Shown here: positions 9,487-35,700 of the stretch, in pieces | Layout of the letters: each line of letters begins with the position of its first letter | Numbering within the stretch: position 1 is the first letter of the stretch | From: Azolla caroliniana | Taxonomy: Eukaryota; Plantae; Polypodiophyta | Length of the DNA: 64,000 bases | Assembly: GCA_043228905.1 (NCBI GenBank) | Contig: JBHGNT010000011.1 | Location: 12,834,001 to 12,898,000 of the forward strand | Direction of reading: 5' to 3' | Translations under genes and position numbers: made by a program | The notes under the pieces: generated by a model | The model's input: the letters and a program-made list of their open reading frames with translations, nothing else | What the model was told of the DNA's origin: nothing | Databases searched by the model: none

Positions 9487-9489
9487 TCT

Positions 9490-9507: not shown

Positions 9508-9529
9508 GGAGGCAGCAGAAGAGCAGAAG

Positions 9530-11653
9530 ATGAAAGGGTCGAATCTTGCGGAGGCCATGGCTTCGGCCGTGGATCGGATATTGAGTGCACGCGAGGGCTC
9601 CGGCGCCCTCGACAGAGCCATTGAGGCGGTCGTCGGTACGATCGGTTGGTTCAGCGGAAAGGATGCCACGAAGTATTTGGCGTCCTACGGGGCAGAAATG
9701 CTGATGCGGGACATTTCGGAAGAGAGGCGTCTTGCCGGGTTCCCTCGAGTGGCGATGCCGAGCATCCATGCGGAGGTGCTCGAGGTGCGGGCGGAGAGCC
9801 GTACCTGGGAGGAGTTCGAAGGACGACTCCTAGAAAAATACGGGTTGGACGACGTGCTCCGGCTTTCGAAACGGGACTTCATCGAATGGGTGGAGTCCCC
9901 CGGCAAGGGAAGAAACGCGTCGGCACTCCTCCGGGAGTTCGAAGAACGCTTTGCGCGCCTTTCGGTGCTTGACCGAACCGTTCTGGCTACGAGCCGGGTC
10001 CTACTGTTCGTCAAGTCGGTGGACGAGCGGGACCGGGATCAAGTCGGCTCCTTGCTGGAAACCGAAGATGGGTTGACGACCGACTGGGCTGCGGTTAAGA
10101 GAGTCTGTGGCCGTTTCGACAAACGGCGAGAATGGGCTGACAACGGGGCGGCTGGTGCGGGCTCTGTCACAGCAAGGAGGCTTGAACCGGCACCGCAAGG
10201 GCGAAGGGAAGAAACTCGGGAATGGCTCGAAACCGGTCCGGCTTCAACCGGCATGGTCAGTGGCTCGTCCGGAGGAGCAGCGCTGGACGAGTTGACGCGG
10301 GTGATAAAGGATCTCTAGATCGCCCAGACTCGAAGGGAAGCCGGCGAACCGGCTCGTGACCGACGGCCGGCAGCGGGGAACAGGTGCATGTGGTGCGACG
10401 AGGTCGGCCACATTTGGAAGGACTGTGGCGATTTCGCAGAGGCGTTGAGGAACCGGGTGTACCTGTGGGAAGGGCGGGTGCACGCCGGCGACACCAGAAG
10501 GGCCCTAAACCGAAACGACGGGCGAGGAGGTATGAAGAGACTGATAGAAGAGGCAGCGGCCCGACACGTGGAGGCCATCCACTACTCGGCGTCGGCTAGC
10601 ATTCGGGTCGGGGGCAGCGAGGCCCGAAAGGAGAGCAAAGACGGATTCTGGTCGGCAATGCTGGAAGGCCTCGCCGGTGCACGGCTGAGGAAAGATGAAA
10701 CAGACTGCGCTGAGAGACGGGTCTGGGAAATAACCGGGTGGAGCGACCCGGTCGAGGAGAAGACGGGCTTTGTAGAAGTCGCCTGCCGGAACTACGAGGC
10801 TCTGGTGGAAGACAAACGATTGGGGAAAGCCGGAGCAGCCGGGCCCTCACAACGATACGAGACCCGATTCGGGCAACGACGGAACGATGCCGGTGGGTCC
10901 AGCGCGCAAGATAACCCCAGGAAGGGCGGATACCGACTGGGGACGGAAATAGAAAGGACCACGGACCTACGGAAGGTCCTAGAAGAACGGATCCTCGACA
11001 TAAAAGTGGAGCTGTCATTGCGGGAGGTGCTAGGGATCGCTAAGAAGGAGTTCCACGACTCCATTGTGGACTTGGTAAAGCGGAAGAGGCTGTCGACGGA
11101 GACGGAACCGGAGAGACTGGTGGAGGTGCGGACGACGCAAATCGACGACTCGGCGCTGGCAGATGAGTGGGCGGAGAGCCACTATTTGAGGCCACATTGG
11201 GCCCGAGCGACCACGGAGACCCCGGTAAAGATCGGAGATGTTCAGGAACCAGTGGTAGCATTAGTGGACCACGGTTCGGAAATAAACCTGATGTCCATGG
11301 ACTTCTATAAGAAGGGGAAGTGGCCGATCAACACCAAGCACGGGTGGAAGATACGAGCGGCGACGCGCGCCACCGAGGAACTGCACGGGGCCTGCCTGAA
11401 CGTGCGAGTCAAGATTGGCAACGTCGAGATTGACCAGCACTTCTTCGTACAGGAGACGTCCTCGCACCCGGTCATATTAGGGGAACCATACATCACGGCG
11501 GCGCGAATGGAGACCAAGGTGCTGGACAACGGTTCGGCCTACGCGAGGGTCAAAAGCTAGGATGGGCGCCATTCAGTCCAATTTCTGACGGTGCGGCCGA
11601 ACCACGAGTGAAACCGCGAATCCCTCGGTGGCGAGAACCAGGAGGATTTTTAG
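9530..11653 (+). pseudogene. gag: E2 gag-protease with premature stops
   Basis: Colinear with E1 gag-PR. In-frame stops at 10316-10318 and 11558-11560. Ends ...GAG GAT TTT TAG. Confidence 0.92.
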
Positions 11654-14600
11654 AGAGGGCTGCCAAGGCGTGGGGCCGAGACAGCCCGGACACTCGGGAA
11701 AGACCCCACGACTGTACGATAGAACCGAAACCGAAGAAACCTTGTAAGATAGGTAGGAAATTTTGCTTCTCCAACGACGGAGGGTGTATGATAGTCAGCA
11801 TCGTTGGCCGAGAAAAGACAAGGGCGGAAGTGCGACTTCGAGCGTGCGGAGTTCTCGGCCCGGACGAGGAAATCAGCGGAGCCGTGGAGGCGGTCTCCTT
11901 CGACGACACCTTGGGAATGCTGAGGAAGGTAGCCGGAGAAGACCTTAACGAAGACCGGACGATACCGGTATGTTCCGAAGAGATGTACGAAGTCATCGCG
12001 AACTTCAATCGGGGGCTCGGGTCGGATCGGACGGCCTGAGTTAGCACAAAGTACAAGACTGTGGACCGGAAGGTAAGGCCAGTCGCGGCACCCTTACCGG
12101 AGGGCAACGAGTCCCGAATCAGAGGGGTTGTGTCGGACCCCAGTTTACGAGATCCGGTCTGCATAGGACACACCTTCACCGACGGGACGCTCCAGGAGCT
12201 CAAAATCGGTGGGGGCGGGTTCCTACTGCCGGCGGAGGAAGACCGGTTTCGGAGAATGCTCGGAAGGCACGGGAAAGCCTTCGCATTCTCACCAGAAGAG
12301 ATCGGGTGCATAGACCCGACAATCGTGGAGCCGATGGTGATATTCACGGTACCGCATGTGCCGTGGAATCTCAAGCCTATTCCAGTACCGAGAGCTCACA
12401 TCCTGAAGTTGATGGAGCTATTGAGGCAGAAAGTCGATATGGGCATTCTCGAACCGTCGAGTGCCCCATACTCGAACCGATGGTTTACCATACCAAAGAA
12501 AAACGGAACATTGCGCTTCATTCAAGACCTGCAGCCGGTCAACAGAGTGACCATTCGGAACGCAGGAATCAGACCGACCATAGACGAGTTCGCAGAGGCC
12601 TTCGCCGGAAGGTCGATTTACTCGGTCGGTGATCTGTACTCGGGGTACGACCAGTTCCAGCTAGCCGTGGCGAGCAGAGACATCACGACGATGCAAATTC
12701 CCCTCAGCCTAGTGCGGATGTGTACCCTGCCACAAGGAGGGACCAACTCGGTGGCCCACATGGTGAATGCAATGAACAAGGTACTGAGGGATTGCATCCC
12801 GGACATCACCATGCCGTTTCTAGACGACATCCCGATCAAGGGGTGCCCGGTGGAGGAGAAGGACGAGACAGTCGGGCCGGACGGATGTCGGCGATTCGTG
12901 GCGACACACATCGACGACTGCGAGAAGGTGCTACAAAGGCTAGAGGATGCGAGGCTCACCTTCTCCGGGGAGAAATCGGCCTTCGGGCAATCGGAAATCC
13001 TGGTGGTCGGACACCTATGTGGACCATATGGCCGGAAGCCGTCTCCAGCAAAGGTAGAAGCCATCTCCGCGATGAAGACCGACTGTAGCTCGGTTACGGA
13101 AGTTCGGAGGTTCCTGGGGGCATGCGCGTTCTACCACATATGGATCCCGCATTAAGCCCACGTTGCGGAGCCGCTATACGGGTTGCTAAAGAAAGGGCGA
13201 AAATTCGAGTGGCGAGACGAGCACACGGAGTCGGTCCGGAAGCTGAAGGAAGCTCTTGCGGCAGCACCGGCGCTCTGAAAGGCTGTCTACGAGAAGGGTA
13301 CCCCGGTATACATAACGGTGGATATGAGTCCGACCGGGATCAGATGGGTCGTCAACCAAGAAGACGGGGACGGCATTCGGTTCCCGATCCGATTCAGCGC
13401 GAAGGTCCTCAGTGAGCGACAACGAGGGTACGCCCAGGTTAAACGCGAACTCTGGGGTATCGTTTCGGCAGTAAAGGCCGACAAAGACTACCTGATCGGG
13501 ACGGAAGTGATTATCGAGACAGATTGCCTGCCAATTCTCGGCATGGTTTCCGGATGCGCGACACCGGACCTGGCGATGCTCAGGTGGATAGCGTACATCA
13601 AGTCCCTGGACCTGGAAATACGGCACATTTTCGGAAATGACAACACCATGGCCAACATGCTTTCGAGGGCGAGGTTTGATGACGAGGGCGGCATGGTTTC
13701 GGAGGACGAAGAAGTCGGCGTGAACTTCTTCGAAGCGGCGTACGTGACGACCGATGGGACGAGCACTCCGGCACTTAACGACTTCGATGAGAGCAAGTAT
13801 GACGGCGAGTGGCTCCAGATCGGTGGATTTTTGAGGACAATGATGCCGGATGCGTCATGGACGAAGGACGAGGCCAACCGGATCCGGAAGAAAGCTTACC
13901 GATTCTTTCTCCGGGACGGATACTTATGGAAGCACCCGAAGAAGAGGAACGGCGTCCCGCTCCGGGTGGTGGCGATGAAGGAAGAACAGGAGGAGCTGTT
14001 GACGGCCTACCACGACAGCCCTTGGGCTGGACACCGTGGAACGTGGGCCATGTTCGAGAAGATAAAGGGGAAGTACTGGTGGCCGGGACTATACCGGGAC
14101 GTGCATTGGTTCGTGACAACTTGCGAGAGCTGCCAGATGCACTCCGTAGTCCGACATCGGGACGAGCTTCACCCTACGTACCCTCCGACCATCCACTTCA
14201 AATGGATGGTGGATCTGGTGACGATGCCGATGGGCGTAGGACAGATGCGGTATCTAGTCCTGGCTCGGGAAGATCTGACGAACCAGGTGGAAGGTCGAGC
14301 CCTTCAGAACAAAACGACCGCGGCCGTATGTCGGTTCCTGATTGAGGACGTGATATGCCGGTACGGGTGCGTCGGGAAGATCGTGGCTGATCGCGGGGAG
14401 TTGGACGCCGAAGAGGCCGAGGAGATGTTCGACCGGCTAGGAGTCAAGCTCTCACTTACCACTGCGTACAATCCGGAGGCGAATGGGAAGGTGGAGCACG
14501 GAGACGGACCGATCATCAAGGCGTTAGTTCGGGCATGCGGAGGGCAAGTCGGGAACTGGCCACGGCTGCTACCTTACGCGTTGTGGGCTGACCGAACTAC

Positions 14601-15147
14601 GCACAGTTCGGTAACCGGATTCATGCCGGCAGAGCTCATGTTTGGGCAGAAGCCGATCATGCCGATGGAACGAACGATCTCCTCATGAGCAACCGTGGAC
14701 TGGAGAGACGAGATGAGCCGGGAGGAATTGTTGACGGCGCGCATACGACAGCTCGAGCGAAGACCGGAGGACGTGGAGCAGGCTGCGGAAAAGCTTCGAG
14801 TGGCAAGGACGAGGAACAAAGCCCGGTTCGACCGAACGCACCGGCTCCGACCGAAGAAAATCGAGGAAGGCGGTTGGGTGTTAGTCTACGACAGCAGCCT
14901 CGACAACCAGCACCGAGCGACACGGAAGTTCGCAAGAAGGTGGTTCGGGCCTTACGTGGTACAAAGCGCCAACGACAATGGGACGTACCATCTGGCGGAA
15001 CTCGATGGTACTAGAATGGCGATACCGGTAGCTGGGAAGCGGATCAAAGCGTTCAAGAAGCGTCACGATGATGAGCCGGATCCGGTTGACCTGGACCGCG
15101 ACGATGAACGATCCGAAACTGAGGAAGAACCGACGGGCGGGGATTGA
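11650..15147 (+). pseudogene. pol: E2 pol (RT, RNase H, integrase) with premature stops
   Basis: ORF pieces 11608-12039, 12061-13155, 13318-14688 and 14695-15147 lie in one frame, separated by point stops. Confidence 0.92.
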
Positions 15148-15220
15148 AAGCTGGACCGGTTTTCTCCGTCCCAACTCAATTTGGCGCATGCCGGTGGATG
15201 CGCGGTTAAGTGGGGGCGGA

Positions 15221-15848
15221 TGTCGTGAAGAAAACCGTCCGCAAGCGGAATCGGTGTGCCGGAGCGTAGGAACCGGCTCTTCTTGCGCGTTGTACATAAG
15301 AGAGAATGTTGTACATAGAAGATCCGAGGTAGGTAGATTCGGTAGGTGGGGAGTTAATAGGAAACGACTCCCTTTTTGCCTATAAGAGCAGGGAGACGAG
15401 GAGGAGGAAGGCATCGCGGAATCAGAGAGGACGAAGTGTTGTCGGGCTGTCGGTAGAAGGCTTCTCTCTCTTCCATACTCCATAGCTTCTTTCTATGCAG
15501 GTTTCGGGAGGCTCGCGCTGCTCTGAGGAATGCCCGAGTGCTTCCGGCAGCACCTCCAACCTACTTCTTTCTTTCTGTCCGTTTACGAACAAGCATCGGC
15601 ATCTGTTCGCCGGCCTGTTCGGTTGTAACCGACTTTGTGTCTTGTTGTTTGTCTTTGTTAATAGATACATAGATTCGTGTCTCTCTGTGTCGCTGTCCCA
15701 CTTGCGTCTTCGTGTCGAAGGGCCGTGTCCCTGTGAACCTACGTTCGCACCTTGTGGGTCTCTTCCCCTCTCCTTTCTCTCTTGCTCTTCGGTATAGGAC
15801 CCCCGAGGTCCCGCCTCATTCCATGCATCCGCGAGGACTACCTCGACA
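15221..15848 (+). repeat. E2 3' LTR (PPT AAGTGGGGGCGGA at 15208-15220)
   Basis: TGTCG...CGACA termini; repeat of 8859-9486. Confidence 0.95.
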
Positions 15849-15852
15849 ACGC

Positions 15853-16143
15853 GTAAGATAGAAAGTACTAGCACAGAACGGTAATCAATTCACAGAGATA
15901 AGACAATAGGGCTTTATTAATTATCCGTCCCGATTTACAATGTAATCGGGCCTTATTATAGATCACTGGCTTTGCATACAAAACGGTGCCAACCGGTCCC
16001 AATCCGAATCGGCATACCGATTCCGATCCGTTTGTTCACTTCTCAAAATATACTTAATTACTAATTATTCTAATAACAGCTTCCGATAATTCCTGCCCTT
16101 TCACATTTTGGACTGTCCTCCGCTCCTTACCGGCTGGCTAACA
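15853..16143 (-). repeat. E3 3' LTR, part 2
   Basis: Aligns with 26549-26856 (one 18-nt indel) and ends GGCTAACA. Confidence 0.92.
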
Positions 16144-16145
16144 CA

Positions 16146-16162
16146 TGGCACGCCCGTGGGAC
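16146..16162 (+). promoter_or_regulatory. tRNA-Arg(UCU) PBS-like site at the E3 PPT position
   Basis: TGGCACGCCCGTGGGAC, 2 nt from the LTR, matches the complement of plant tRNA-Arg(UCU) 3' end (TGGCACGCCCGGTGGGAC) with a 1-nt gap. No purine tract is present on the coding strand. Confidence 0.7.
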
Positions 16163-16272
16163 AGTACCTTGTACATCGAATCCCACTATCCGGCCTTCAA
16201 TCCTCGTCCAAAATGTCCAGAATGCTCTAATCGAGGGGCTCTAAGGGTTCTTCGGAAAGCTGATCAAACCGT

Positions 16273-19200
16273 TGTCGCGTTGTTACGTGCGTGCGTGGAG
16301 AAAGGCGGGACCACGGGGGTCTTGGACTAGGGAGTGATGGAGCGTAGCAAGTCGTGCTTCACTGTTTCTGGGGTATCCCCGGGACACCCTGGAAGCAACC
16401 GTAGGGAAAGATAGAGAGAGAGAGAGAGAGAGAGTGCTTAACACCGACTCACACACACACGCACACACACACGCACACACAGCCCGACCCGACTCACGCC
16501 CTTATGTACAGGAAACGCAGGAAAGAGGAAGCACCCAACACCAACCAAGACGCGGATATACACAGACAGACGCAAAGGTATATATATATATAAAGAAGAG
16601 TACATTCCCGGCTTCGAGCCGGTCCAAGGTAGGTTACAGTAGTCGTCAGCTGCCAAGCCGCCGTCGGAGAGCTCTCAGCTCGTCGCGCCGAGCAGGGTCT
16701 TGCACAGGAGGCTGAACCAAAGCCAACCCTAAGCAAACACGAAGGAGAAGAAGAAGAAGAAGCTAACTCTAAACCTAACGGTATACCCTGTAATGCAAAA
16801 TGGGCAACCCTACACAAAGGGGTGCTCCCTTCCTTTTATAGAACAAGGAAAGGGATGTGTTACAATGTGGGACAAATCCCGACTTTCATGGGATCGTCTG
16901 TCCCGACTTGACTACTCTTCGGCGCCATAAAGGCGCCCTCGATATTCACACTAAATGTACAAGGGTGCTTACACATGCTGCACCCCACCGATGTAGCCAA
17001 TGTTTCCCGGTTTCCGCCTCTGGCCGAAATTCTTCACGACATCCGCCCCCACCTAACTGCACGTCCACCGGTACGTGCCAAATCTGGTTGAAGGGTGAGA
17101 GATTTCGGCCAGCGGGAAACCGGTCTTTCGTGATCCGCATCCCGGCTCGCTGCCGGTTGATCCGTCGGCTTCGATTCTTCCTTCGCGCTTGCCTCCCCGT
17201 AGGCTCGTTCGACTCGTCGATGGGTCCTCTGCCGCGATGTCCATAGTACGCGTACTTCCGTTGGCCCTTGTTCGGCCGTATGAACGCCCTGCTTCCCGCC
17301 GTACGCCCCGATGTCCTCCGCTTGAGGCATGCCTGTAGTGGCCCGCTTGGCCTCCGTTGACCCTTCGTGATGTCCTGGTTGTCGTCCCATGTTGCTTCGT
17401 GTGGCCACCGCCCTCTCGCCGCCACCTTCCTTCTCCATGGTCTTACATTGCCGCGTCGGCTCGAACCGCCATGGTCTCCGGAACGGTGTGGAGGATCCCT
17501 TTCCGGCCTTCTCCGCACTCGCCTTTCCGCTCCGACACCTCCGTGTGCCAACATACCCTCGTCCGTTGTTTGGCATTGCCCGTGTTGCACTCCTTGTCGG
17601 CCCCCTTTCTGGCCAGATCGTGCATCGCTGCTCACCCGCATACCGGTGTCCTTTGCATCCGAGGAACACCCCGTAGTAGCCCGCTTGGCCCTTCCCATCT
17701 TCGTGTTGCTGCAACAGGTCTTGAGTCTTCCCCTTGTCGTCGTCCCCTCACCCCCACCAGCTTGTCACCCCGGCTTGCCGTGTCAGTCTTCGTTACTTCG
17801 ACGGAGCTACCGAGATCTACGAAGCGAGTGTGGAGGATCCTCCTCCGGCCTCTCTTGCCATCCTGATTCCGACCCTGTGCAGTCCACTAGGCACTTGCCA
17901 CTTCGTTCTCGGCACCTCCCTTGTGCCGTCTTCCGCTTCCTTCGTTCGGCCCCGCCCGCGCTGAACACCGTCCCGTAGTCACGCTTTGATCCGGCCCGCG
18001 ATGGCCATTTGCGAGACTCTTTTTCTGTTCTAGGTGTGCCTTTCCGGCCCGACACACCTCCCCATATCTGCCCCTACCGGCTCCTTCCGAACCTCGTGTC
18101 GTCGGGTCCCGTTCCCTGCCGCCACCATCCTTCTCCCTCGGTCTCACGTTGCCACGTTGGCCGAACTGTCGGAGTCTCCGGATCAGTGTGAGGGTCCCAT
18201 AGGACTGGACTCCGTTTCTATGCTTGCCGAAATTCGGGTGCCTTTTGTTTGAGTCCCTCCCGGACTCTCCTCGTGTCTTCCGTGTTGTCGGGTCCCATTT
18301 CCCGCCGCCACCTTCCTTCTCCCTCGGTCTTACGTTGCCACGTTGGCCAAACAGCCGGAGTCTCCGGTTAAGTGTGGGGATCCCGTAGGACCGGACTTCC
18401 TTACGCCCATTGCCTTTGTCACCTCGCCGCCACCGTCAGTATCTTGGTCTTACGTCGACCGCGTTGCCGACTGCCGAAGTCTCTAGAACCGGTGTGAAGG
18501 ATCCTCCGTAGGCCGCCCATCTGTAGCCCTTGCCTTCGTCACCTCGCCGCCACTGTCAGTATCTTGGTCTTACGTCGACCGCGTTGCCGACTGCCGAAGT
18601 CTCTAGAACCGGTGTGAAGGATCCTCCTCGGGCATTCATCGCCTTCTTGACCCTGTCCCGGGTCGTCCTTTTCCGCATGCCGAGAGGGCGGTTTACTCCG
18701 CACCCTCTCCTGTGGTACCAACGTACCGTGTCCTCGTCCTCTTCGTAGGCCTGCTCTCTTCCTCCCTCCTGGAATGGTCATCCGGGAGTCCGCTCCGCCC
18801 GGTTCTCGTCCGGGTCCGTTCGTCCTTCTCCGGATTGTCGAGTCTCGTTCTCCTGTCGCCACCGATCTCTCTTATAGGACTTACGCCGGCACTCGGGCCT
18901 GCAGCCAGATCGGTGTAAGGAATCCCATAGGATCGGCTTTCATTCTCTTTCCAAATCTCGACCTTCGCCCGGTCGGTCTTTCTCCCCATGTAAAAGAGGG
19001 CGGCTCGTCTCGCACCCTCTTCCGCATCGGCACTTCATGCCGATCGAACAATCCACGACTGGATCACGCTCCACCCATATCGGAATGCCGATCTCCTCGT
19101 GTGGTGTCCGTCCTCGGCCTTCTCGCATGCCGTCTCCCATCCGTCTTCGTTGGCAGAGGTTGTCGGTAGTCTTCCGTTGTTCCTCCTTCGCCGCCATTTT
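16273..19200 (-). mobile_element. E4: non-autonomous E1-family relative; 3' LTR plus repeat-rich internal region, 5' LTR lost
   Basis: LTR 16273-17041 reads TGTCGTGAAG...CGCGACA on the minus strand. PPT AGGTGGGGGCGGA at 17042-17054. No gag or pol motifs in 17055-19200. The right boundary is approximate. Confidence 0.8.
17410..18930. repeat. Diverged array of about 7 copies of a ~90-100 bp unit inside E4
   Basis: Recurrent GCCGCCACC...GGTCTTAC...TTGCC...GGTGTG(G/A)AGGATCC near 17418, 17750, 18118, 18303, 18425, 18545 and 18858. 18410-18508 and 18530-18628 are nearly identical (period 120). Confidence 0.75.
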
Positions 19201-20084
19201 CATTCTCTTTCCCTGGCCCGTAATGCTTCTTGTGCAGCCAGGTCTTCTTTGAGAACGGCAAGCTCTTGTGCTTGCGCTTTAATTGTATCCGGGATTGTTT
19301 CCGTCACCGGGGTCGTATTATTATGTACAGTTGTCGGTGTTTCATTATTCTGTACATTTACCGGAGCCATCGGTTCTTGTTCTTGGGGTCCTGTTATGAC
19401 CATCTTAGCCAATTCTTCCGTGGCTATTTCGAATTCTTGTTCCAAGCTCCGGATCCTTGACAAGGCCTTCTCTAGTTCTCCGGTTGTGGCTACCAACCAG
19501 TCCAATTGTGCTTTCTCTTTTGCCTCCATATAATGGACCAGTCCGGCTATTTGCTCATCGATCCACCACAGCCATTGGCTGTCGGTGCTTTGTTGCTGTG
19601 TCCACGCGGAGGGTTGGCCAATTTTTGCGCTTGCCAGTGGCTGATCTTGTCTGGTTACGTCGATTGGCAACTCTAGCTCTAGTTGGTTACCAGTTGGCAG
19701 TACCGGCTCTGGTTGTGCCTCAGTTGGCCATTCCAACTCTGCTTGGTCCTGGTGTGCCGGTGGTGTAGACAAATGAATCATCGGCTCTTGAATCACAGGT
19801 CTTGTTATGTCCTGACCCGCCGGCGTAGCCTGTTGCGCAAGGAATTCTGTGACCGGTTCTGTTCGAACCGGTTCCGATTCCACCCTTGGCTCTGGGCCCT
19901 CAGTGCCGGGTATCGGCATCCTATCCTTCTCTGGGCCCGATTGCTCCTCGGCATGGTCTACAGTGCGCTTCTTCTGGCGCCGTTGGAGGTGCTCGTTGGG
20001 CTCCTTTGCCGTTTCCTCCTCCTGAGTCCCAAGATTGATTTTCATTACCAAGGGCTCTAGCTCCTGTTGACCTGGTCGGCGCAA
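19200..20084 (-). CDS. E3 extra ORF-B, unknown function; P/E/Q-rich region plus coiled coil; probably truncated at the E4 junction
   Basis: 294-aa open frame downstream of pol, in sense orientation, with heptad-like ELEKALSRIRSLEQEFEIATEELAK. Confidence 0.55.
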   Translation of the reverse strand: MRRPGQQELEPLVMKINLGTQEEETAKEPNEHLQRRQKKRTVDHAEEQSGPEKDRMPIPGTEGPEPRVESEPVRTEPVTEFLAQQATPAGQDITRPVIQEPMIHLSTPPAHQDQAELEWPTEAQPEPVLPTGNQLELELPIDVTRQDQPLASAKIGQPSAWTQQQSTDSQWLWWIDEQIAGLVHYMEAKEKAQLDWLVATTGELEKALSRIRSLEQEFEIATEELAKMVITGPQEQEPMAPVNVQNNETPTTVHNNTTPVTETIPDTIKAQAQELAVLKEDLAAQEALRARERE

Positions 20085-20129
20085 TGTAATCTTTATTGGC
20101 CGTGCCGGTGTTTCCTCTTGCGTCTCCGC

Positions 20130-20948
20130 CTAGTTAGGCCGCTCTTTCGCCGTTTTTGCAGTGTCGGCCTCCTTCCCTTTGGTTGCCTTAGCAGCCAATA
20201 GCTGCTGCCGTTTTGAAGCCGTTTTAGGGGTTCCTTCAGTTGTTTTCCCCCGCTTCTTCGCCATGATGGGCTCCACTGGTCGTGCTAACAGTGTGAGCCC
20301 TTGCGCCATCGTCGTCCATATTTTCCTGCCATCCTTCCCTCTTACCGAGTCGATGGCCGCGCGCAGTCCGTCGGCGATCAGCACTGACCAGTCCACCTGT
20401 ATACCCTCATATGTGGCTATAATTAAACCGGCTCTATTCCTAGGCATTGCCCGGGGTTGAGGGTACACATGGCCAAACTCGTGGAGTACACGAGCAATCT
20501 CTCGGAATAAGCCATCCTCACCGCCTTGTGTGCAATATGCCTTGCTGGCCAGAGAGTACTCATCGAGGTATTTCGTGAGCTGCTCCAGGGTAGGGTTGTC
20601 GATGGTGAAGATGCCGCCTTTGGGTAGGCTCGCCAGGGCACGGATTGCCTCCTCTGTGATTACTTTTGTGTCGATGTCTTTGACAACCTTTTCTACCTCT
20701 CTGTGTGGTGGTGCCTCCATGATCCTCAAGAATCCTTCAAATCCATGTTGCTTCAAGCACTTCTTGGCTGCCTCAGAGAGCGCCATGCAGTCCATTTCTC
20801 CTTCTGAGTTGGTGGGTGCTAGTGAGGTAGGTGCGTTAGTGGGCTCTGGGTGCTCGTGTCTGATTATTCTTAATCGCCTGTGTGCGTTTGCAATTCTCTG
20901 TTCACGAAATGAGATGGCCTTCATGCGGTGGAGGTTTTCGTTCTGCAT
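20130..20948 (-). CDS. E3 extra ORF-A, unknown function
   Basis: 272-aa ATG-started ORF about 0.5 kb after integrase. Globular-looking core with a basic C-terminus. Its frame is the same as ORF-B, so the two may be one gene broken by a stop. Confidence 0.55.
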   Translation of the reverse strand: MQNENLHRMKAISFREQRIANAHRRLRIIRHEHPEPTNAPTSLAPTNSEGEMDCMALSEAAKKCLKQHGFEGFLRIMEAPPHREVEKVVKDIDTKVITEEAIRALASLPKGGIFTIDNPTLEQLTKYLDEYSLASKAYCTQGGEDGLFREIARVLHEFGHVYPQPRAMPRNRAGLIIATYEGIQVDWSVLIADGLRAAIDSVRGKDGRKIWTTMAQGLTLLARPVEPIMAKKRGKTTEGTPKTASKRQQLLAAKATKGKEADTAKTAKERPN

Positions 20949-21369
20949 GTTGGCGCCCTTCTCGATTCCTGCGCATGCGCACGTTGTGCACTATAATAGC
21001 AATGAAGTGCCATGTGGCGGCATTTTAATGCGCTATAAATAGCCCACTACGTGGCTTTTCAAAGTGCCCGTTCACTCCTTGTCATTGCATGTGGCCGTTC
21101 GCTCCTCGCCATTGCATGATTTGGGTTTCATTTGATCTGATTCAATTTCCTTTCTTTTTCTTTTCTTTCTTTATTTATTTTAAATTCAATCTTGTTAATC
21201 CGTATCTGGCCCAAACGGACCCTTCTCCGGATTGTGGTCCCATTCACCGGTTTCGTGCTTGCCGATTTCTTGACCGGTTAACGTCTCGTTGTGTCGTCCT
21301 TACCAGTGTCTGGTTCGGTGTCAGCCTTTGTCTGTTCAAACGGGTTTCTTGGCATGGGTCCATAGTATG

Positions 21370-24300
21370 GTTTGAATCGAAACCCATTGACCCATTGACC
21401 CATAACTTCTCCGGCGAGTGTCCCTAGTTGGTAGGAACCGTTGAACTCTCATGTAATCCAATATGGTCTAGTTCACCGAAACCGTAGCTTCCCTGGCATC
21501 TTACCCACCGAATACAAGTACTGGCTTGCCAATCTCGAACATTTTTTCATTACCTTTCCGGTGTCGATCGACGAACGCTTTCCTTCTCCGTTGCTCCAGT
21601 TCCATGTGTATCAGGCTGGCTATCCGGTGTTCCTCTAGTTTGCATAGTGCTGCTAGTTGGATTGTTTCCGACTCCTTCTCGTTTAGGCGTTCCCGAACTT
21701 GTAACAGCAAACTGGGAACTTGGAATTTGATCGGCATTACCGCTTCCAATCCGAATGCTAATCGGAAAGGCGTTGTCCGGATACTTGTCTTATACGCTGT
21801 CCGGTAGGCCGAGAGTGCACTGTGCAGCTTTGTATCCCAATCCGTCCAGTTCTCATTAACTATTTTCCGCAAGATGTTTTGTAGTGTCTTATTTGTGGAT
21901 TCGGCTAATTCATTGGCTTGCGGATAATACTGAGTGCTTCACTTGTGCACCACCGCATAGAATGTCATCAAACTCTCCACCACTTGTCCTAGGAAATGCC
22001 CACCTTGGTCGCTAATAAGCTCGATCGGACATTCGGCACCAGATATATTCATATAAAAACTTTGTCGTGGATGCCGCGGTGTTGTCACGTAGTGCTTTGG
22101 ACTCCACCCACTTGGTGTAGTAGTCCGTAGCGACAATCACGTATCGGTTGCCGGTTCTCATTGTTGGTTGGTGGTTTAAATGGGCCGACGAAGTCCAGCC
22201 CCCATTTCTAAAATGGTTCCAATGGCAACACCGGCTAGTGAGGTATTCTTGCATGTTCCGTTGGTTGGCCCATCCGCTAACATAAATCGCATTCTTTAGC
22301 ATACCGAATGGCATCTTTTAATGTTGTCGGCCACCATAGGCCACTCTGCCATATTTTCCTTGCCGTAGCGTCCCTAGTATAATGCCCTCCGGCAACGCCG
22401 CAGTGTGCTTCCTGCAGTATTTGGTCTTTTTCATCGCTGTGCACCGCGCGCCGCCATATGCCATCCGTGCCTTTATGGTACAGTGTGTCTTGCAGTAGGC
22501 AGAAGTGCCGACTTTGTACTGCTAATCGTTTCCGCTCGCCTCTGTTCATCTCCTCTGGAGGTAATCCAATGCTCAGGAATTGGTGCATGTTAGTGAGCCA
22601 CTTGTCCTCTTCGGCGATCGTACCATCTGTTGTCGTTTCTGTTGTGACCCTAAACAACTCTGCATCCGGAAACTCGTCTGGGGCTCCGTCACCAGTTTCA
22701 CTGGAGTCTAATCGGCTGAAATAATCCGCAACCGCATGTTGTATGCCTGGCCGGTGAAATATCTCGAACTCAAATTCCTATAATAATAACGTCCATCGGA
22801 CCAGCTTACCCGTGAGTGATGCTTTTGAGACCAAGTAAAGTAGCGCCGAATGCTCTACATGAAAGGAAAATTTCCTCCCCAATAGGTAGTGTCGGAACTT
22901 GGTGACGTTGTAGATCATGCCCAAGGCTTCTCTTTCCATCGTTGAGTAATTAGTTCCACCTGGGACAGCTTCCGGCTGGCATAATACACGGGCCGGTACC
23001 ACTTCAGTTCGGTAAGATGCATTAATGCACTCCCAATTGCTATGTCGAACACGTCTACGAATACGTGGAATTCTTTAGACCAATCCGGAGGTTACACCAC
23101 CGATGCTTGTGATAGTAGTACTTTTAATGCCCGGTAAACCTTCTCTTCTGTGTCCGTCCATTGAAACGGTGTGTGGTGCACCGCAACATGCAATGGTGTG
23201 GCCAGATCTGCTAGATACCAAAGCATCCGGCTATGCCACCGGATTTGTCCTAGGAACCGACTCAAAGCTGTCGCCGTGGTCGGTGCCGGTGCCTCCAAAA
23301 TTGCTTTGACCTTGTCTAGGTCTACTGCAATACCGTCCTTGCTAACGATGTGGCCTAGTAATGCACCTCTTGACACTCCGAACACGCATTTCGCCGGGTT
23401 AAGGCTTAACCGGTAAACCCTACATTTCTCAAGACATAGTCGGAGGTATTGGAGGTGTTCCCCTTCTCGGCTGTACACGGCGAAATCGTCTAGGAACACC
23501 TGCGTGAATGCTGGAATAAATTCTCCGAAAATCTCCATGATTATCCGTTGAAAGGTTGTCGGGGCCGTTTTAAGTCTGAACATCATGACTACGACGACAA
23601 ATACTCCCCATTCGGTAACAAAAGCGGTTTTCTCCTGGTCGTCGGGGTGCATCCGGATCTGATTGTAGCCGTTGAATCTGTCCAGGAAACTATAAACTTC
23701 GTGGCCGGCTACTGCATCCAGGACTCCATCCGTAAAAGGGAGTGGGAAGGCGTTGCTGCATTCAACTTCCGGTAGTCAAAACATACCTTGATTTTTCTGT
23801 TCTTTTTCGGTACGACGACTATCAGACTCAGCCATGTCGCCTTCTTGACCGGTCGGATGAACCCTACCCGTAACAATTTGTCGATTTCGTCCTTTACTTT
23901 TGCTGCATAGTTAGGGTTCATTTGGTAGCGTCGTTGAGCCACCGGCTTGGCATCCTTACTCAGATGTATCTGGTGTTGATACAACTGAGGATCTAGCCCC
24001 CGCATGTCCTCATAAGACCACGCGAATACGTCCCGGAACTCCTTTAATAAGGTGATGATTTTCGTCTTCCTTTCTGGAGTGATTTCTTTGGCGATGTGAA
24101 CCGGTCTTGCGTCTTCTGCGGTGCCTAGGTTTACCTCTTCCAGCTGAGAAGCTTTTACGCGTTGCGATACTGCCAATTCCTTCTCCAAAGCTTCTTGCGC
24201 TTGTCGTAACTCTCTGATGGCTTCTTTATCTGGTTCTTCATCGGCATTCTCCGGTTGCATTATATATGGTGCCTCTATTACGGCGACATCAATTTCAAAT

Positions 24301-25000
24301 AAAGGTACAATTTTCAGATTCTCCTGTAAGTACTGATCAAACTCTTCATCAGCCAATCCTTCAAGCATGTTGACACATTCCGCATACAACGGTGTCAGCT
24401 CCTTGCCGGTACTCGAATGTGTTTGTGTAGGTACTTGTACTTTCGTTTTGCCGCGCCGGAAAGTAATTATGTTTTTCCGCCAGTTCTGCTTGATGTGCGC
24501 TGTTTTTAGCCATGGGTGGCCCAACAACAGTGGGTATGCCCCTTGTGCATTGAGCTGGAGGACTACTGCCGAAATGCGGAAGGTGTGACCTCAGATAGTC
24601 ACTTCCAAATCTCGTATCAATCCGGTAGGTCTTACTAAACTTGTGTCGGCCATCCGGAGCCAAATGGGGCACGGCTCCCAGTCCTAGATTCCCAAGGTAT
24701 TACAAGTTCAGAGGCTAATCACATTCACATCGGATCCTCCGTCTATAATCATTCCAAGTAGCTCTCGTCCCTTGACGATGGTTGTGATAGCCGGATTGCT
24801 CGTGTCCACTACTGTCAGTCCTTCCTCCGGATTAGAAAAGAACGCCGGAGCCGGTGGCGTGTCGACCGCAGTCATTCCCGTCTTCAATCCTTTCGTAAAC
24901 CGAGGTACTAACTGCAATAGCCAACCTAATGGCAGTGTGATTTGGCATTCTTGCAATGCCTGCCATGTTGGGTTTTCCGGCTGGCTATTGTCGGTGGGCT
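21370..25000 (-). pseudogene. pol: E3 pol (PR, RT, RNase H, integrase), heavily frameshifted
   Basis: IIDGGSDVNVIS (PR), EKTAFVTEWG...FLDDF (RT), NYSTMEREALG (RH), HCGVAGGH...[12 protein letters not shown] and WDTKLHSAL (INT). Confidence 0.9.
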
Positions 25001-26345
25001 CCTCTGGATTCTCTTTTTGTTGTTGTTATACAGTGGCCTACTTCCGGATGGCTTCCTAGGTTTCCCACTCCGTTGCTTTTCCTTTTGACCTCGTGGTCAC
25101 TTGTTGTATGTCCGTGACTTCCGCTTCCACCATGTTTACCGTTGGTCGCTTATCGTAGCTTTTCGCCGAACATTGGTTACTGTAGTGTCCCTCTTGTCGG
25201 CAATAGTAGCAATAAGCCTTCTGGGTGTTGCTGGATTCTACTATCGCTCCGGCACCCGGTTGAGGTCCTGTTGTAAGTGCTTGGCCTTGGTCCAGTTGGG
25301 TGCTTGTTGTACCCTTGTCCGGCTCCTGTTGGTGATCCCCGTTTTTATTGAAATGTCGTTTTTTGTTGAAATGCTTTTTGTTCCGGTAATCCTGTCGGGG
25401 CCGGTTGTCATACTTGCCATAGTCCTCTCTTCGTGAGTTGTAACCGGGGGAGTGATCCCGGTTGTATCGCTCATTCTGTTCCCCATTATAATCCTAATAT
25501 CTATCATACTGGTCGCGGTCATAAGTGTCTTTTCGATCACTGTACCGGACATCTTGTGCTGGTACCAGATCTTGCGTCAGGCGCCATCTGGCGGCGGGCC
25601 CTTCCAGGGTCATGCTGAACTCCGCCATCTTTGAGCGTTCTGCTTCGGTTGCGGTTAAGCGTTGTGACACATGATTCACTTCCCAAGTCTGCTGAAATGC
25701 ATAGATGTGGGCCTCTGCGTCCGGATCATCCCGGTACTTGGGATATTGAAATGGCATGTCGTCGTCTAGTGTCGGAACGTGGGTTGGTGCTGTCGGAGGT
25801 CTTTCCTCCTCCTCTGTCGTAGGTCATTCTTCCTTTGTGGGAGTTCTTGCTTCCTCTGTGGGAGGTCTTTCTTCTTCGGTGGGAGGTCTTTCCTCCACTG
25901 CTTCGGGTGTCGGGGGTTGCTCAGAACTGGGCCGGTCTGTGGCTTCCAGCTCTTTCACTTCTGGTTCTGGTGTCGGTAGGGTATCCGATTACTCGTCCGT
26001 TGGTCCGTCTGGGGTGTCGTGACTGCTGTGGTAATTGGAATGAGCGCTATATTCGCTGTCCAAGTCCGATTCAAAGGCTGAAAACGGTTCTAAATTGCCT
26101 TCTCCTGCAGCTAATGCCTGCAGAAGGGATTCCGCTTCCCGAAGACTACTTAAGTTGCTTCCTTCGTCGGGGTGGAAATCTTGTTGCAAATGGAGTGACT
26201 CCTCGGCCACTCGTCCGATCACTTTGGAAAATGATTGATCCGCACGAATCTCTTCCGCCGCCTGCTGGAAGGCCTCTCGCTTCCGCAACCGCTCAGTAAG
26301 TCTCCTTGCTCGATCTGTAACCGGTCCATTCGTTGGTCTAGTCAT
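25001..26345 (-). pseudogene. gag: E3 gag, disrupted
   Basis: ORF pieces 25989-26345 and 25494-25757 (PFQYPKYRDDPDAEAHI), and knuckle CYYCRQEGHYSNQC near 25170-25215. Confidence 0.8.
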
Positions 26346-26382
26346 CCATTCCCGCCGATGTTCGCTGCAGTTATGCAGTAAT

Positions 26383-26393
26383 TGTGGTCGCCA
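26383..26393 (-). promoter_or_regulatory. E3 primer binding site, tRNA-Arg(UCG)-like
   Basis: Minus strand TGGCGACCACA, 7 nt (TAGTTTT) after the 5' LTR, is complementary to ...TGTGGTCGCCA, the 3' end of plant tRNA-Arg(UCG). Confidence 0.7.
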
Positions 26394-26400
26394 AAAACTA

Positions 26401-26856
26401 TGTTACTCCTAAGGGCTGGACAATAGCCTAACACAAGGTGTCTACGGAAGACACTTCACCAAAGGGTGTTAAGGCGAGGTAAAGACTAACGATTGATCAG
26501 ACCTTTATTGACTACTTAAGCAACATATCATGAATCTTAATACACGCATAAGATAGAAAGTACTAACACAAAACGGTAATCAATACACAGAGATAAGACA
26601 ATAGGGCTTTATTAATTATCTGTCTTGATTTACAATGTAACTGGGCCTTTTTATAGATCATCGGCTCTGCATACAAAACAGTGCCAACCGGCACACTAAT
26701 ATGAACCGGTCCGTATCCAGATCGGCATACCAATTCCGGTCCGTCCATTTACTTCTCAAAATATACTTAATTACTAATTATTCTAATAACAGCTTTCGAT
26801 AATTCCTGCCCTTTCACATTCTGGACTGTCCTCTGCTCCTTGCCGGCTGGCTAACA
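26401..26856 (-). repeat. E3 5' LTR
   Basis: TGTTA...TAACA termini. Minus-strand TATA (CTATAAAAAG) near 26647-26656 with downstream AATAAA motifs. Confidence 0.93.
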
Positions 26857-26861
26857 CGACT

Positions 26862-31418: not shown

Positions 31419-31892
31419 TGTTAAGAGTCTATTACTAATCAATAGACCAAATCAAGTAAAAAGGAAGAAAATAGATTGGATAGAAGAACCCGTTCCACCC
31501 GACCACCCCCGAGCTATGATCTAGACATAGCCAACCTACCACCGACGTCCCATACCGCCGGATATTAGGATGACTAATACCTTGGAAGAGTTAAACACGA
31601 TCGTTGAGACGAAAGCCTAGCCCGCACCACCGGTGTCTACGACAGCAGCCTTCCGACGTGATGATCCCTATGAGGGTAGCTAAGCCTCATATTTATACCT
31701 TTTCCTAGGCCCCTTGAATAGATGTGCCTTTCTAAAAGGCTCTCTATTCATTGGTTGTCTAAATCATGATAGTGCATGCACATATCATTCATTCTATCCA
31801 ATCATTAGTCCCCTTTTTAATAATAGTGAACATACCCTTCACTAATGTAAATATTAGTGACCTACCCTCACCAACGTTATGTGTACATAACA
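31419..31892 (-). repeat. E5 3' LTR
   Basis: TGTTA...TAACA; repeat of 43997-44470. Confidence 0.97.
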
Positions 31893-31899
31893 TACTCCC

Positions 31900-32154
31900 C
31901 TACTTCAAAAGATTGCACTCTTGCAATATAAAGTGAGGAAATTGTGCCTTAAGCGAATGCTCGCGTTCCCATGTGGCATCATCAATAGGTTTATCCATCC
32001 ATTTGATCTTGAATAGCCGAATCTCTTTAGAACGTAAACGTTTAGTACGAGAATCAAGAATTCGTTCAGGAACATGAGGTTTGTAAGAAAAATCCTCTAA
32101 TGTTACAAGATCTTGGATTGTGATGGTGTTATCACCAGAGCCTAAAAATGGTTT
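31900..32154 (-). pseudogene. pol: E5 pol C-terminus (chromodomain), separated from the rest by E6
   Basis: KPFLGSGDNT...PERILDSRTKRLRSKEIRLFKIKWMDKPIDDATWERE...LLK*, the in-frame continuation of HPVFHVSRL after removing E6. Confidence 0.9.
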
Positions 32155-32703
32155 TGTCGTGACTCTTGAGTAGGAAGCAGAGAGAGAGAGCGATGGCGAT
32201 AGAGATAACGATAACGATAGAGATGGCGAGAGCGGTAGAGATAGCGATAGTGATAGAAAGAGAGTGAAAGAGGGAGAGAGTGCGAGAGAGAGAAAAGTAT
32301 AAGTGAGAGATAAGAAATGGGAATGCGATTATATTATGAGAAAGAAGATTACAAGGAGTAGGCTAAGGGCTAAAGACTGGTGTTGAACCGAATGAGTTGT
32401 GATGAGTGTATGGACTCTTATTTATAGGCCCTTATGGAGTATTCTAGAATGTTCTAGAATATTTTAGATATTTATGAATAATAATAATAATAAATATAAT
32501 CATGAAATATTCAAGAACATTCTAGAATAATCTAGAATGTTCTAAATATCTCATAATAACTAAACATATAATTATTATGATTACATCTCACATATGTTAT
32601 TACAATGGTTAAAGTACAATATGTAAACCAAGAGGTTATGGGTTCGATTCCTGGTTCGCCAAGATGAATGTCATGATAAGCCAAGATGTATGTCTTCATG
32701 ACA
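32155..32703 (-). repeat. E6 3' LTR
   Basis: TGTC...GACA; repeat of 37541-38089. Confidence 0.97.
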
Positions 32704-35700
32704 TTATCCCCCCTTTTCGATGACGAGTTGCACGAGTCGGAAGAAAAGAGTTCAGACTTGGTTTATGAGGATATTGGTTGTGAAATGCAACAACCATGTC
32801 GGAGGCATTGGCAAGATGTTCGGCAGGCTCCCATGTTCGATCATTAGGTGTATAGCCTAACCAATCAACCAAGTAGTATAGTTTGTTGTGAATGATCTTG
32901 GAGTCGAGGATAGCGGCAACCTCATATTCAGAGCCATTGGAAACGTCAATTGGAGGTGGGGGAGGTGTAACACGACCCGGAATAGAGCTCGTTGTGTAAG
33001 GCTCCAAAAGTGAAACATGGAAGACCGGGTGAAGACGCATATGAGGAGGAAGATCAAGACGAAATGTCACATCATTGATCTTACCACTTATGACATATGG
33101 GCCAAAACGTTGATAATCCAATTTGTAGCAAGGTCGGGTCGTTTTAATGCTACCTTGTAAGAGCCATACACGATCGCCTACTTGAAATGTAGTCGATGAA
33201 TCACGCCGATGACGGTCAGCAATCTTCTTTTGAGTGTTTTGGGCTTCACATAAATGATGCAAAAGCATATCCTGAACTTCTTGGAGTCGAGTGAGCCGAT
33301 CTTCAGCAGTTGGGTTTTTTGGGAGTTCAGGATGTTCAAGCATCGTCCAACGAGGATGGTACCCAATGTTTGCAAAAAATGGGGAATATCCAGTAGAAGA
33401 ATGCTCGGAGTTGTTATAAGCAAATTCTGCCAAAGGTAGTAAATCCACCCAATCATCTTGTTGATAGTTGACAAAACAACGTAGATATTGCTCGACTGTT
33501 TGGTTGGTGCGCTCACTCTGCCCATTAGTCTCTGGATGGTAGCCGGAAGAGAGTTTACAAGAAGTATGTAAGAGTCTGAACATGTGCCGCCAAAATTTCG
33601 AGATGAATTGGGGACCCCGATCACTGATAATATCATCCGGAAGACCATGATGGCGAAACACCTCCCGCATGAGTAAATCAGCTGTCTCTTGACTAGTAAT
33701 GGTCTTTGTGCATGGAAGGAAATGTGCCATCTTCGTAAAACGATCGACAACAGTGAGAATCGAATCAAATCCCTTGGAAGGTGGAAGATCCGTAATAAAG
33801 TCCAAGGAAATAGATTTCCATGGGCTCTCCGGAATAGGCATTGGCTGTAATAAGCCATATGGATGATGTCGAGGCTTTTTTGATCGGCAACATGTATCAC
33901 AGCTACGAACATAATCCGTAACAAAATGGCGAAGCCGTGGCCACCAATATCGGCGAGAAATCAACTCAAAAGTCTTGTGGATGCCGAAGTGTCCCGCCAT
34001 TGGTGTGTCATGACATTGTTGCATGACTTTGAGTCGAGAAGGACCGTCAGGCACATACAAGAGAGTTTGTCGAAAAAGTAACCCATCATGCCAACTAAAC
34101 TGGGTGTAGTCTAGACGAGGATTTTGAGTTTGGGAGCTAGATGCACGATTTGGGATAATATGGCTCAAAACCTCTTGGGCGAACGCATCAGTCGCAATCT
34201 GCTCACGAATGGAATCAAGAAACCTTGAATCTCCCAGTGTGTTGATGGTATGCATTGCCATTATTCGTAGACAATCAGGACCTAAGAGGATTTGCTTTTG
34301 GCTTTCAAATGCGGCCTCTCCAGGTTGAAGTTCCATATACGAACGTCTAGATAAAGCATCTGCTTTTCCTTGTTGCATCCCAGGGCGATATAGAATTACA
34401 AAATCGAAACGAGTTAAGAACTGCGCCCAACGAGCTTGTCGTCGATTCAAGACTCGAGCACTTTGAAAGTATGTTAGATTTTTATTATCATTGTAGACAA
34501 TAATCTGCTGAGAAGAACCCTCCAGAAAATGACGCCATTGTTGAAAAGAATCCACAATGGCAAGAAGCTCTTTGTCGTGAATCTCATAGTTGATTTCTGC
34601 GGCTTCAAATTTTCGTGAGTGAAAAGCCACCGGGTGCAGTTCACCATCATCACCAATTTGGGATAGTACACTTCCGAGTGCGAAATCCGATGCATCAACT
34701 TCAAGTATAAAGCGCCTCATTGGATCGACATGGATTAAGATTGGTGCGGATGTAAATGCTTGCTTTAAACCCTCAAATGCAGAGTTCGCATCTATACTCC
34801 ATACAAATGATCGATTCTTGTGCGTCAGTTGAGTGAGGGGCAACACAATTTTTGAATAGTCTTTGATGAACTTGCGATAAAAGTTTGCGAACCCCAAAAA
34901 ACATTGCACATCTCGCACGGACTGTGGTGTTTGCCAATCCAAAATTGTTTGAACCTTTGATGGATCCATAGAGATGCCATTTGAAGAGACTATGTACCCC
35001 AAAAACTCCACTTGACGTTGGTCGAAACTACACTTCTCCAATTTTGCATAGAGACCATACTCTCGTAGCCGTTGCAAAACTTGGCGAACATGTATATCAT
35101 GTTCTTCTTGAGTTTTTGAGTAGATCAAGATATCATCCAGGTAAACAATGATGAAGATATCGAGGAAGTCTCGAAAAATATCATTCGCCATATGTTGGAA
35201 GACTGCTGGTGCATTCGTGAGGCCAAAAGGCATCACTGTGTACTCAAAATGACCATAGCGAGTGCGGAACGCCGTCTTCCATTCATCCCCAGGACGAATT
35301 CGAACAAGGTTGTAGGCACCTCGAAGATCTAACTTCGTGAAATACTTTGCTTCACTGAGGCGTTCTAGAAGGCTTGAGATCAATGGGAGAGCATATCGGT
35401 TTCTAACGGTCACTTTATTCAAGCCTCGATAATCCACGACCATACGAAGCGTACCATCTTTCTTCTTAACGAAAAAGATGGGTGCACCAGCAGGAGATTT
35501 TGAATGTTGGATAAAACCATTTGCCAAGTTCTCATTGATATATTCTCGAAGAACCTCTAACTCCGTGGGCGAAAGATTATAAATTGGTCCCCATGGAGGC
35601 TCTTTTCCTGGCTGCAAATCAATTGGGCAATCATATGGTCGATGCTCTGGTAGTCTATTAGCCTTCACCTTATCGAACACATCGGAGAATTCTATGTACT

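Follow-up and report, generated by a model that had tools for sequence, protein, structure and literature searches.

Structure and affiliation of E3

The window, which is the whole stretch of 64,000 nt of Azolla caroliniana DNA analysed here, contains an LTR retrotransposon, E3, with the following features.

8704–8708: left target-site duplication (TSD) CGACT, flanking E3
8709–16143, minus strand: 3′ LTR of E3, in two parts (8709–8858 and 15849–16143)
about 8859–15848: nested Phygy-like element E2, splitting the E3 3′ LTR, with a 4-bp TSD, ACGC
16144–16145, minus strand: spacer of 2 nt separating site 2 from the 3′ LTR, like that of a polypurine tract (PPT) and found in all 11 family loci
16146–16162, plus strand: site 2, an inverted primer-binding site (PBS) by sequence, matching the last 18 nt of tRNA-Arg(UCU), CCA included, at 17 positions and lacking one nt
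16163–16175, plus strand: 13-nt insert with a 4-bp hairpin, located where the 18-nt tRNA match ends
16176–16186, plus strand: second part of site 2, complement of the tRNA T-loop (TCGAA) and 5′ T-stem strand (CCCAC)
16187–16265, minus strand: what is left of the terminal part of extra ORF2; compared with locus L017, E3 has lost about 1.2 kb of this ORF
16273–about 19100, minus strand: foreign, high-copy Phygy-like fragment X, with an LTR at 17041–16273 and a PPT at 17054–17042
19221–20948, minus strand: extra ORF1, with one stop
21311–26345, minus strand: decayed gag-PR-RT-RH-INT region, without aRH and without a chromodomain
26383–26393, minus strand: PBS1, a site of tRNA-Arg type separated from the 5′ LTR by 7 nt
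26401–26856, minus strand: 5′ LTR of E3, with a TATA box at 26656–26646
26857–26861: right TSD CGACT, flanking E3

A single 5-bp TSD brackets all of E3, and the limits given in the preliminary description, namely matching LTRs and a 5-bp TSD, were reproduced, with LTRs at 8709–16143 and 26401–26856 and the duplication CGACT. With the left LTR compared in its two halves, the LTRs are 91.4% identical over 151 nt and 85.4% identical over 314 nt. The gag-PR-RT-RH-INT region and the extra ORF all lie on the minus strand in E3 and contain many stops and frameshifts; intact relatives of 1760–1940 aa exist. A TATA box was found on the coding strand 192–205 nt into the LTR in six of the eight whole LTRs examined, and matches on the opposite strand occurred in two of the eight, at differing places. 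The earlier statement that ORFs, TATA box, and poly(A) signals are all on the minus strand stands for the ORFs and the TATA box; the poly(A) part of it is weak, AATAAA being present on the coding strand in only three of the eight LTRs. A Pfam search with extra ORF1 gave no match, and the Atlas provided leads, with scores below 0.9, to Transposase_32 and ATHILA ORF1. Fragment X, 130 nt from site 2, took the place of about 1.2 kb of E3. Its 5′ LTR was not found, and depth drops about tenfold at its edge, 19100.

Judged from its sequence, E3 is a dead, Athila-like Ty3/gypsy non-chromovirus. As in Ty3/gypsy elements, the domains follow in the order gag-PR-RT-RH-INT between direct LTRs with a TSD, and a tRNA PBS (with rice tRNAs as the proxy) lies just inside the 5′ LTR. 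A PPT adjoining the 3′ LTR was found in none of 12 sequences (E3 and 11 family loci), whereas all five of the other elements in the window have one; purine-rich windows occur only 38–55 nt away, as seen in ten sequences. Canonical LTR retrotransposons such as Ty3, and retroviruses (PMC5371799 and PMC6894440), share with E3 the TG...CA LTR ends, the 5-bp TSD, a tRNA PBS that follows the 5′ LTR, a primer site immediately upstream of the 3′ LTR, and the gag-PR-RT-RH-INT organization; their plus-strand site is an RNase H-resistant purine tract, whereas the corresponding site of E3 matches a tRNA 3′ end.

Both chromodomain and aRH are absent in all four intact relatives, as in Athila of the OTA group, and the absence of aRH separates the family from OTA/Tat (Ogre, Retand, and TatI–III), RVT_3 having been detected in the control P0182. 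According to the excerpted text of Neumann et al. 2019 (PMC6317226), Athila and OTA non-chromoviruses have in common with the family the lack of chromodomain and aRH, the 5-bp TSD, the single gag-pol ORF, and extra ORFs 3′ of pol. The dominant PBS of Athila, however, corresponds to tRNA-Asp, tRNA-Asn, or tRNA-Ala, whereas the E3 family has tRNA-Arg, a type shared with TatIII/Ogre/Retand, which, unlike the E3 family, carry aRH. No inverted PBS for Athila or OTA was found in the same excerpts. The lineage name Tatius was not found in PMC11358816. E3 does not show the Phygy combination of a tRNA-Trp PBS, a 4-bp NCGN TSD, and no extra ORF; its neighbours E1 and E2 have 4-bp NCGN TSDs. In a tree based on INT only and built without named REXdb references, the family groups with three angiosperm proteins (support 84/86); by INT, it is closer to OTA-type proteins of angiosperms than to those of Phygy-like elements or chromoviruses.

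The tRNA-like sites inside the two LTRs

PBS1 reads TGGCGACCACA (26393–26383, minus strand) and lies 7 nt inside the right LTR. It is a tRNA-Arg primer site, as previously proposed, but the proposed UCG identity was not upheld: the intact PBS1 of L017 gives a 13-nt match to rice tRNA-Arg(CCG), rice tRNAs being a proxy for those of the host, and the UCG-like form in the E3 copy stems from a substitution at 26383. The PBS1 type varies between subfamilies (CCG in L017 and UCU in L024) while site 2 is constant, and site 2 is therefore not a mirror held by pairing with PBS1.

At the other end, the coding strand reads GTCCCACGGGCGTGCCA (16162–16146), followed by TG and then by the left LTR ending at 16143; it is on the minus-strand cDNA that site 2 has the sense of a PBS. 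The anatomy described earlier, with no PPT and a 17/18 match to tRNA-Arg(UCU) 2 nt from the LTR, holds in E3. The 3′ end of rice tRNA-Arg(UCU) is the very sequence that had been predicted (rice isodecoders again standing in for host tRNAs), and the match to it includes CCA and stops at base 18; besides the rice genes, a tRNA-Arg(UCU) of prokaryote type in which CCA is encoded (L037) served as a proxy. Over the 15 nt that precede the spacer, the proportion of purines is 0.47 in E3 and in each of the 11 related loci, compared with 0.73–0.80 in the five other elements. No tRNA genes or Rfam families were found in the region, and the Arabidopsis tRF supplement gave no match.

The tRNA match resumes collinearly past the hairpin, which is 13–14 nt long, with TCGAA present in seven of the ten aligned sequences. 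Contig loose ends past 16180 start with CCCAC in 17–32 contigs in each of four runs. In the hairpin, 92.5% of the cells are paired, and two of the four pairs show double changes. RNAalifold favours an alternative fold, in which site 2 pairs with the 3′ arm of the hairpin and which is without double changes. In a duplex test of the extended pairing, which is a weak test, the real pairing was equalled by 15–27 of 500 shuffles for the four E3-like sequences and by 49–89 for four others; the counts for L014 and L018 were 218 and 307, respectively. A whole tRNA-like RNA fold was rejected, as the acceptor 5′ partner occurred within 300 nt in only three of ten sequences, at scattered places.

The minus-strand PBSs of Ty1 and Ty3 pair with tRNA in two parts (PMC5371799, as excerpted). 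The likeness lies in the acceptor end and T arm being matched by two segments around a loop-out; theirs, however, is on RNA and primes the minus strand, whereas the split site of E3, which occupies the PPT position, reads on the cDNA strand, and the tRNA it matches need not be the one used as first primer.

Conservation across the family

The search pattern held the first 10 nt of site 2, and copies with other 3′ ends could not surface among the 27 metagenome matches, of which 16, for which BLAST gave no match to the window, were set aside as unrelated and 11 are family loci. These 11 are kin and include two pairs of near-duplicates; L017 and L035 are probably collapsed contigs. Site 2 was accompanied by the same 2-nt spacer and 1-nt deletion in all 11. 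The nine letters beyond the search pattern (chance about 1.5e-5) were present in every family locus and in none of the 16 unrelated matches, indicating that the recurrence of site 2 is not due to chance. Nine matches of the pattern in bacterial genomes were taken as chance, judged by their titles, and no relative was found in viral contigs.

Site 2 is present across subfamilies whose LTRs align at their ends only, and L014 retains it though its extra ORF1 is only about 32% identical. In L014, L017, and L020, its place is the 3′ terminus of the coding strand. The mini-element L024, with LTRs 82.6% identical, carries PBS1 and site 2 together; the two sites are physically linked in this element and in E3, which has one TSD. 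Diverged contigs span the PBS1 junction in 10 of the 32 matches listed for PBS1, in organisms A–D, and the site 2 junction in 2 of the 32 listed for site 2. The family has high depth in four organisms, and its intact relatives are 96–98% alike at the integrase. A normal PPT in other copies, one of the refuting conditions named earlier, was not found at that position in the related loci. On comparison of these loci, site 2 in place of the PPT is confirmed as a trait of the lineage.

Priming of the plus strand

We consider it probable that the split tRNA-Arg(UCU) site binds a second host tRNA, or a 3′ fragment of it, that primes the plus strand. Replication would begin with tRNA-Arg at PBS1, and the minus-strand strong stop, first jump, and elongation would proceed in the usual way. 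RNase H would clear the RNA over site 2, and the exposed cDNA would bind the last 18 nt of tRNA-Arg(UCU), leaving a one-base bulge; the 13–14-nt hairpin would loop out, and the T-loop and 5′ T-stem would pair past it. Extension of the CCA end by RT through the 2-nt spacer and the LTR would give the plus-strand strong stop. The tRNA would then be taken off by RNase H, and trimming of 2 nt by integrase would yield the TG...CA ends and the 5-bp TSD. The location and polarity of site 2 are those of a PPT primer, with 2 nt between its 3′ end and the LTR in 12 of 12 sequences, which supports tRNA priming of the plus strand, and such priming would fit every feature seen. Isodecoder variation is a weak test of this model, since site 2 would not be copied from the tRNA. 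A literature search covering titles and abstract openings, with few subscription journals, found neither a dual-PBS element nor such a route. Primer sites of the Drosophila element micropia are reportedly the subject of a 1988 paper.

A more doubtful explanation is that a tRNA-like RNA of the element itself resists RNase H and primes the plus strand, site 2 being a tRNA-derived, non-purine PPT whose cut is marked by the hairpin. The position and spacer are as for a PPT, and the invariant 1-nt deletion, from which the motif could be acting on its own, and the self-folding alternative suggest constraints of the motif itself. Why CCA, the boundary at 18 nt, and the collinear match to the T-loop remain tRNA-like across distant subfamilies is nevertheless left unexplained, and a GC-rich mixed 17-mer differs from the PPTs described in the excerpted sources. 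It is improbable that a displaced PPT 38–55 nt upstream primes the plus strand, with the tRNA-like block serving in end processing, strand transfer, or tRNA-fragment binding. Twelve-nucleotide windows with 10–11 purines do end before the LTR in all ten sequences (at 38 nt in five, 50 nt in four, and 55 nt in one), but neither their position nor their sequence is constant, they fall in the tail of extra ORF2, which is rich in purines (equally rich windows make up 6–67 of 289 in nine loci), and the purine run is partly the tRNA T-stem match. An overhang of 40–50 nt would also have to be removed to give the TG...CA ends.

Site 2 is more canonical (17 nt, 2-nt gap) than PBS1 (11–13 nt, with a 7-nt gap in E3), as might be expected of an ordinary PBS on an antisense full-length RNA, with either strand, or two opposite RNAs together, serving as the template for the family. 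We regard this option, of which the either-strand form had been raised in the preliminary description, as quite unlikely, because the TATA box, conserved only on the coding strand (six of eight LTRs), and every ORF point in one direction; moreover, the antisense RNA would also be without a PPT, and its other end would need tRNA priming. The fixed 1-nt deletion is only a weak argument against it, because copying from tRNA is not required of a PBS; even the PBS of Ty1/Ty3 is not inherited from tRNA, according to the excerpted literature. At a distance of 130 nt from site 2 there is a foreign LTR that has a PPT of its own, and part of E3 is deleted there, which could have meant that site 2 came from an unrelated plus-strand element fused to E3 by a neighbouring insertion. 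This is hardly credible and was refuted by insertion-free copies, which keep the same junction, and by L014, L017, and L020, in which site 2 continues into extra ORFs of antisense direction; one TSD surrounds E3. Within 16144–16272, where such an element had been considered, 16144–16265 belongs to the 3′ end of E3 itself and is collinear with the extra ORF of L017. Minus-strand self-priming through pairing of site 2 with PBS1 was also rejected, as PBS1 of E3 and L017 is not complementary to site 2 (that of L024 would work).

Extending priming by a second tRNA to the family, we think it rather likely that a whole plant Ty3/gypsy lineage does without a PPT and that host tRNAs, possibly different ones, prime both strands, the second by annealing to single-stranded cDNA through a bipartite site. 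One tRNA and one PPT are taken as general for LTR retroelements, and structure-based LTR finders build in this pair. If the proposal is true, RT would be able to use a tRNA on a DNA template, and plus-strand priming would be open to rewiring, in a successful lineage; the tRNA 3′ half is a suggested source from which a primer site may be captured.

Boundaries and affinities of E3

Self-BLAST and edge inspection confirmed the matching LTRs and 5-bp target-site duplication (TSD) proposed in the preliminary description for E3, the decayed Athila-like Ty3/gypsy retrotransposon: it is a single insertion whose LTRs span 8709-16143 and 26401-26856, flanked on each side by CGACT. The left LTR is interrupted by the element E2, and the LTR halves are only 91.4% and 85.4% identical, indicating that the copy is old. 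The intact relative P0159 aligned with 26345-21311 (minus strand) in seven segments containing 17 stops; extra ORF1 mapped to 20948-19221. A minus-strand TATA box occurred 192-205 nt into the LTR in six of eight whole LTRs, and AATAAA on the same strand in just three; of the minus-strand signals reported previously, the genes and TATA box thus stood but the case for the poly(A) signal was weak. Gene direction and TATA box identify the right LTR as the 5' LTR. At 26425-26470, near the LTR U5 end, contig depth was 5-10 times that of the junction at the primer binding site PBS1 in all four sequencing runs compared with the window, which suggests that this motif is common to a far larger set of subfamilies.

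Four intact relatives (1761-1939 aa) possessed gag, RT, RH, and INT; aRH and a chromodomain were absent from all four. In an INT tree of 17 rows, the family grouped tentatively with three angiosperm proteins, one of which has aRH, and stood separate from the Phygy-like and chromovirus sequences (support 84/86, with a long-branch warning). For extra ORF1, Atlas leads to Transposase_32 and ATHILA ORF1 were obtained (scores <0.9). The family behaves as an OTA element on the Athila side would, but a tRNA-Arg PBS is not the type listed for Athila, and it was therefore not filed there.

Other features of the window
431-7666, 8859-15848, and 16273-19100: Phygy-like elements, 4-bp NCGN TSD, DUF4100 gag
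31419-44470: young element enclosing a chromodomain element, LTRs 99.6% identical
32155-38089: the nested young chromodomain element, LTRs 99.8% identical
50898-53771 (minus strand): G-type lectin S-domain receptor-like kinase

The S-domain kinase identifies the host as a land plant, and the presence of Phygy-like and Tcn1-like neighbours hints at a non-seed plant. The PBS of the Phygy-like elements is presumably of the tRNA-Trp type. None of the tRNA-type PBS motifs of our scan matched at the PBS position of the Tcn1-like element at 32155-38089. The foreign Phygy-like fragment X is high-copy, with short repeats in its interior and no Pfam match in the one interior ORF scanned, and is possibly a non-autonomous derivative.

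tRNA matches of PBS1 and site 2

PBS1, TGGCGACCACA, starts 7 nt after the 5' LTR, and the coding strand at the 3' end reads GTCCCACGGGCGTGCCA (site 2, an inverted PBS at the polypurine tract (PPT) position), then TG, then the LTR. Rice tRNA-Arg(UCU) genes end in CCCACT-GGGCGTG or CCCACC-GGGCGTG in the excerpt consulted of the tRNA alignment supplementing PMC5492330. With CCA added, their 3' 18 nt equal site 2 except for one base that site 2 lacks, so that the assignment to tRNA-Arg(UCU) held for 17 of 18 nt, with rice as proxy for the host tRNAs. In the same excerpt, PBS1 of the related metagenome locus L017 matches tRNA-Arg(CCG) for 13 nt; locus L024 has an Arg(UCU)-type PBS1.

In an alignment of 10 sequences (the window and nine of 11 related loci, near-duplicates L020 and L024 omitted), the cDNA strand continued past the match with a 13-14-nt insert and, in seven, TCGAA, the T-loop complement. 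The insert's 4-bp stem was paired in 92.5% of cells, with double changes at two pairs representing few independent events. In each of the four runs, 17-32 contigs departed from the window at 16180 and continued CCCAC, which extends the tRNA match. By eye, a short inverted repeat followed by CGAAC was seen after PBS1 in the window (26355-26380, minus) and L017; PBS1 perhaps has a split design similar to that of site 2. L017 also carries a second extra ORF (oriented 732-1742, ~337 aa, E/Q/K-rich) between extra ORF1 and site 2, ending near the tRNA-like block.

Origin and conservation of site 2

Because a foreign LTR that carries a PPT of its own begins 130 nt from site 2, a nesting artefact had to be excluded. 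Contig depth (four runs on 15849-19300) was high over 16200-19100 and dropped about tenfold beyond, assigning the region to 19100 to X. L017 aligns with 15849-16265 and with 19156-21293, the two matches being separated by 1.2 kb; this collinearity on both sides indicates that E3 lost ~1.2 kb at the place of X and that site 2 is its own 3' end. The suspicion that 16144-16272 came from an unrelated element was thus dispelled, and we regard a nesting artefact as extremely improbable. L014 and L020 have different LTRs and an extra ORF1 directed toward site 2 (~32% identity in L014).

Among the contigs listed, the LTR-site 2 junction was bridged by 2 of 32 (37 and 25 differences), both diverging from the window at 16262, and the PBS1-LTR junction (26200-26620) by 10 of 32, from organisms A-D (13-36 differences). 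Loose ends ahead of the LTR start agreed at just 0.37-0.41, the level of random flanks, with no shared purine tract seen among these contigs. Both sites stand on one uncollapsed stretch only in E3 and in L024, and in the latter they lie between LTRs 82.6% alike. In L017 and L035 the order is PBS1-LTR-site 2, and these two are probably collapsed contigs. On its low-coverage contig, L024 (oriented 490-1246) forms a mini-element without pol: LTR, site 2, ~480 bp of extra ORF2, PBS1, and LTR, the two sites facing inward.

A metagenome scan used a pattern that joined the LTR end to the initial 10 nt of site 2 and was unable to return copies with another 3' end. It found 27 loci, of which 11 were related to E3 and 16 were not. 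The spacer was 2 nt in all 11 related loci, and the next nine letters, outside the pattern, were identical in all 11 (chance ~1.5e-5) and present in none of the 16. The purine fraction beside the LTR was 0.47 in all 12 sequences, E3 included, compared with 0.73-0.80 in E1, E2, X, E4, and E5, in agreement with the earlier view that the 3' LTR of E3 lacks a PPT.

Plus-strand priming

To start plus-strand strong stop, a primer would need to anneal to the minus-strand cDNA with its end directly ahead of U3. Bound to site 2, tRNA-Arg(UCU) would be placed in this way, leaving a 2-nt gap for integrase to trim, and T-arm pairing would extend across the loop-out, as described for the minus-strand primers of Ty1 and Ty3 in the part of PMC5371799 consulted. 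We infer every priming step, and consider it rather probable that this second tRNA primes the plus strand. A single account then covers why the site ends in CCA, why its match stops at 18 nt, why the T-loop match is collinear, and why site 2 is independent of PBS1. Against this reading, the energy gain from the second tRNA segment did not clearly exceed that of shuffled sequences (15-307 of 500 were as good, using RNA parameters and the prokaryote-type tRNA L037 as proxy), and RNAalifold picked a fold other than the insert hairpin.

The element's own RNA might instead serve as a non-purine primer, which we think unlikely. Windows of 12 nt with 10-11 purines end 38-55 nt ahead of the LTR in all 10 sequences and would suit a displaced PPT, but the tail of the ORF upstream has many windows of this kind, and we hold such a primer, like antisense replication, to be quite improbable. 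Priming by tRNA-Arg(UCU) remains our preferred reading.

An element with an inverted PBS replacing the PPT was not found in listings of the openly accessible literature, nor in the portions consulted of PMC6317226, PMC11358816, PMC5371799, and PMC6894440. The inverted-PBS cis-architecture is real and lineage-wide and apparently undescribed so far, and the plus-strand priming route is likely new.
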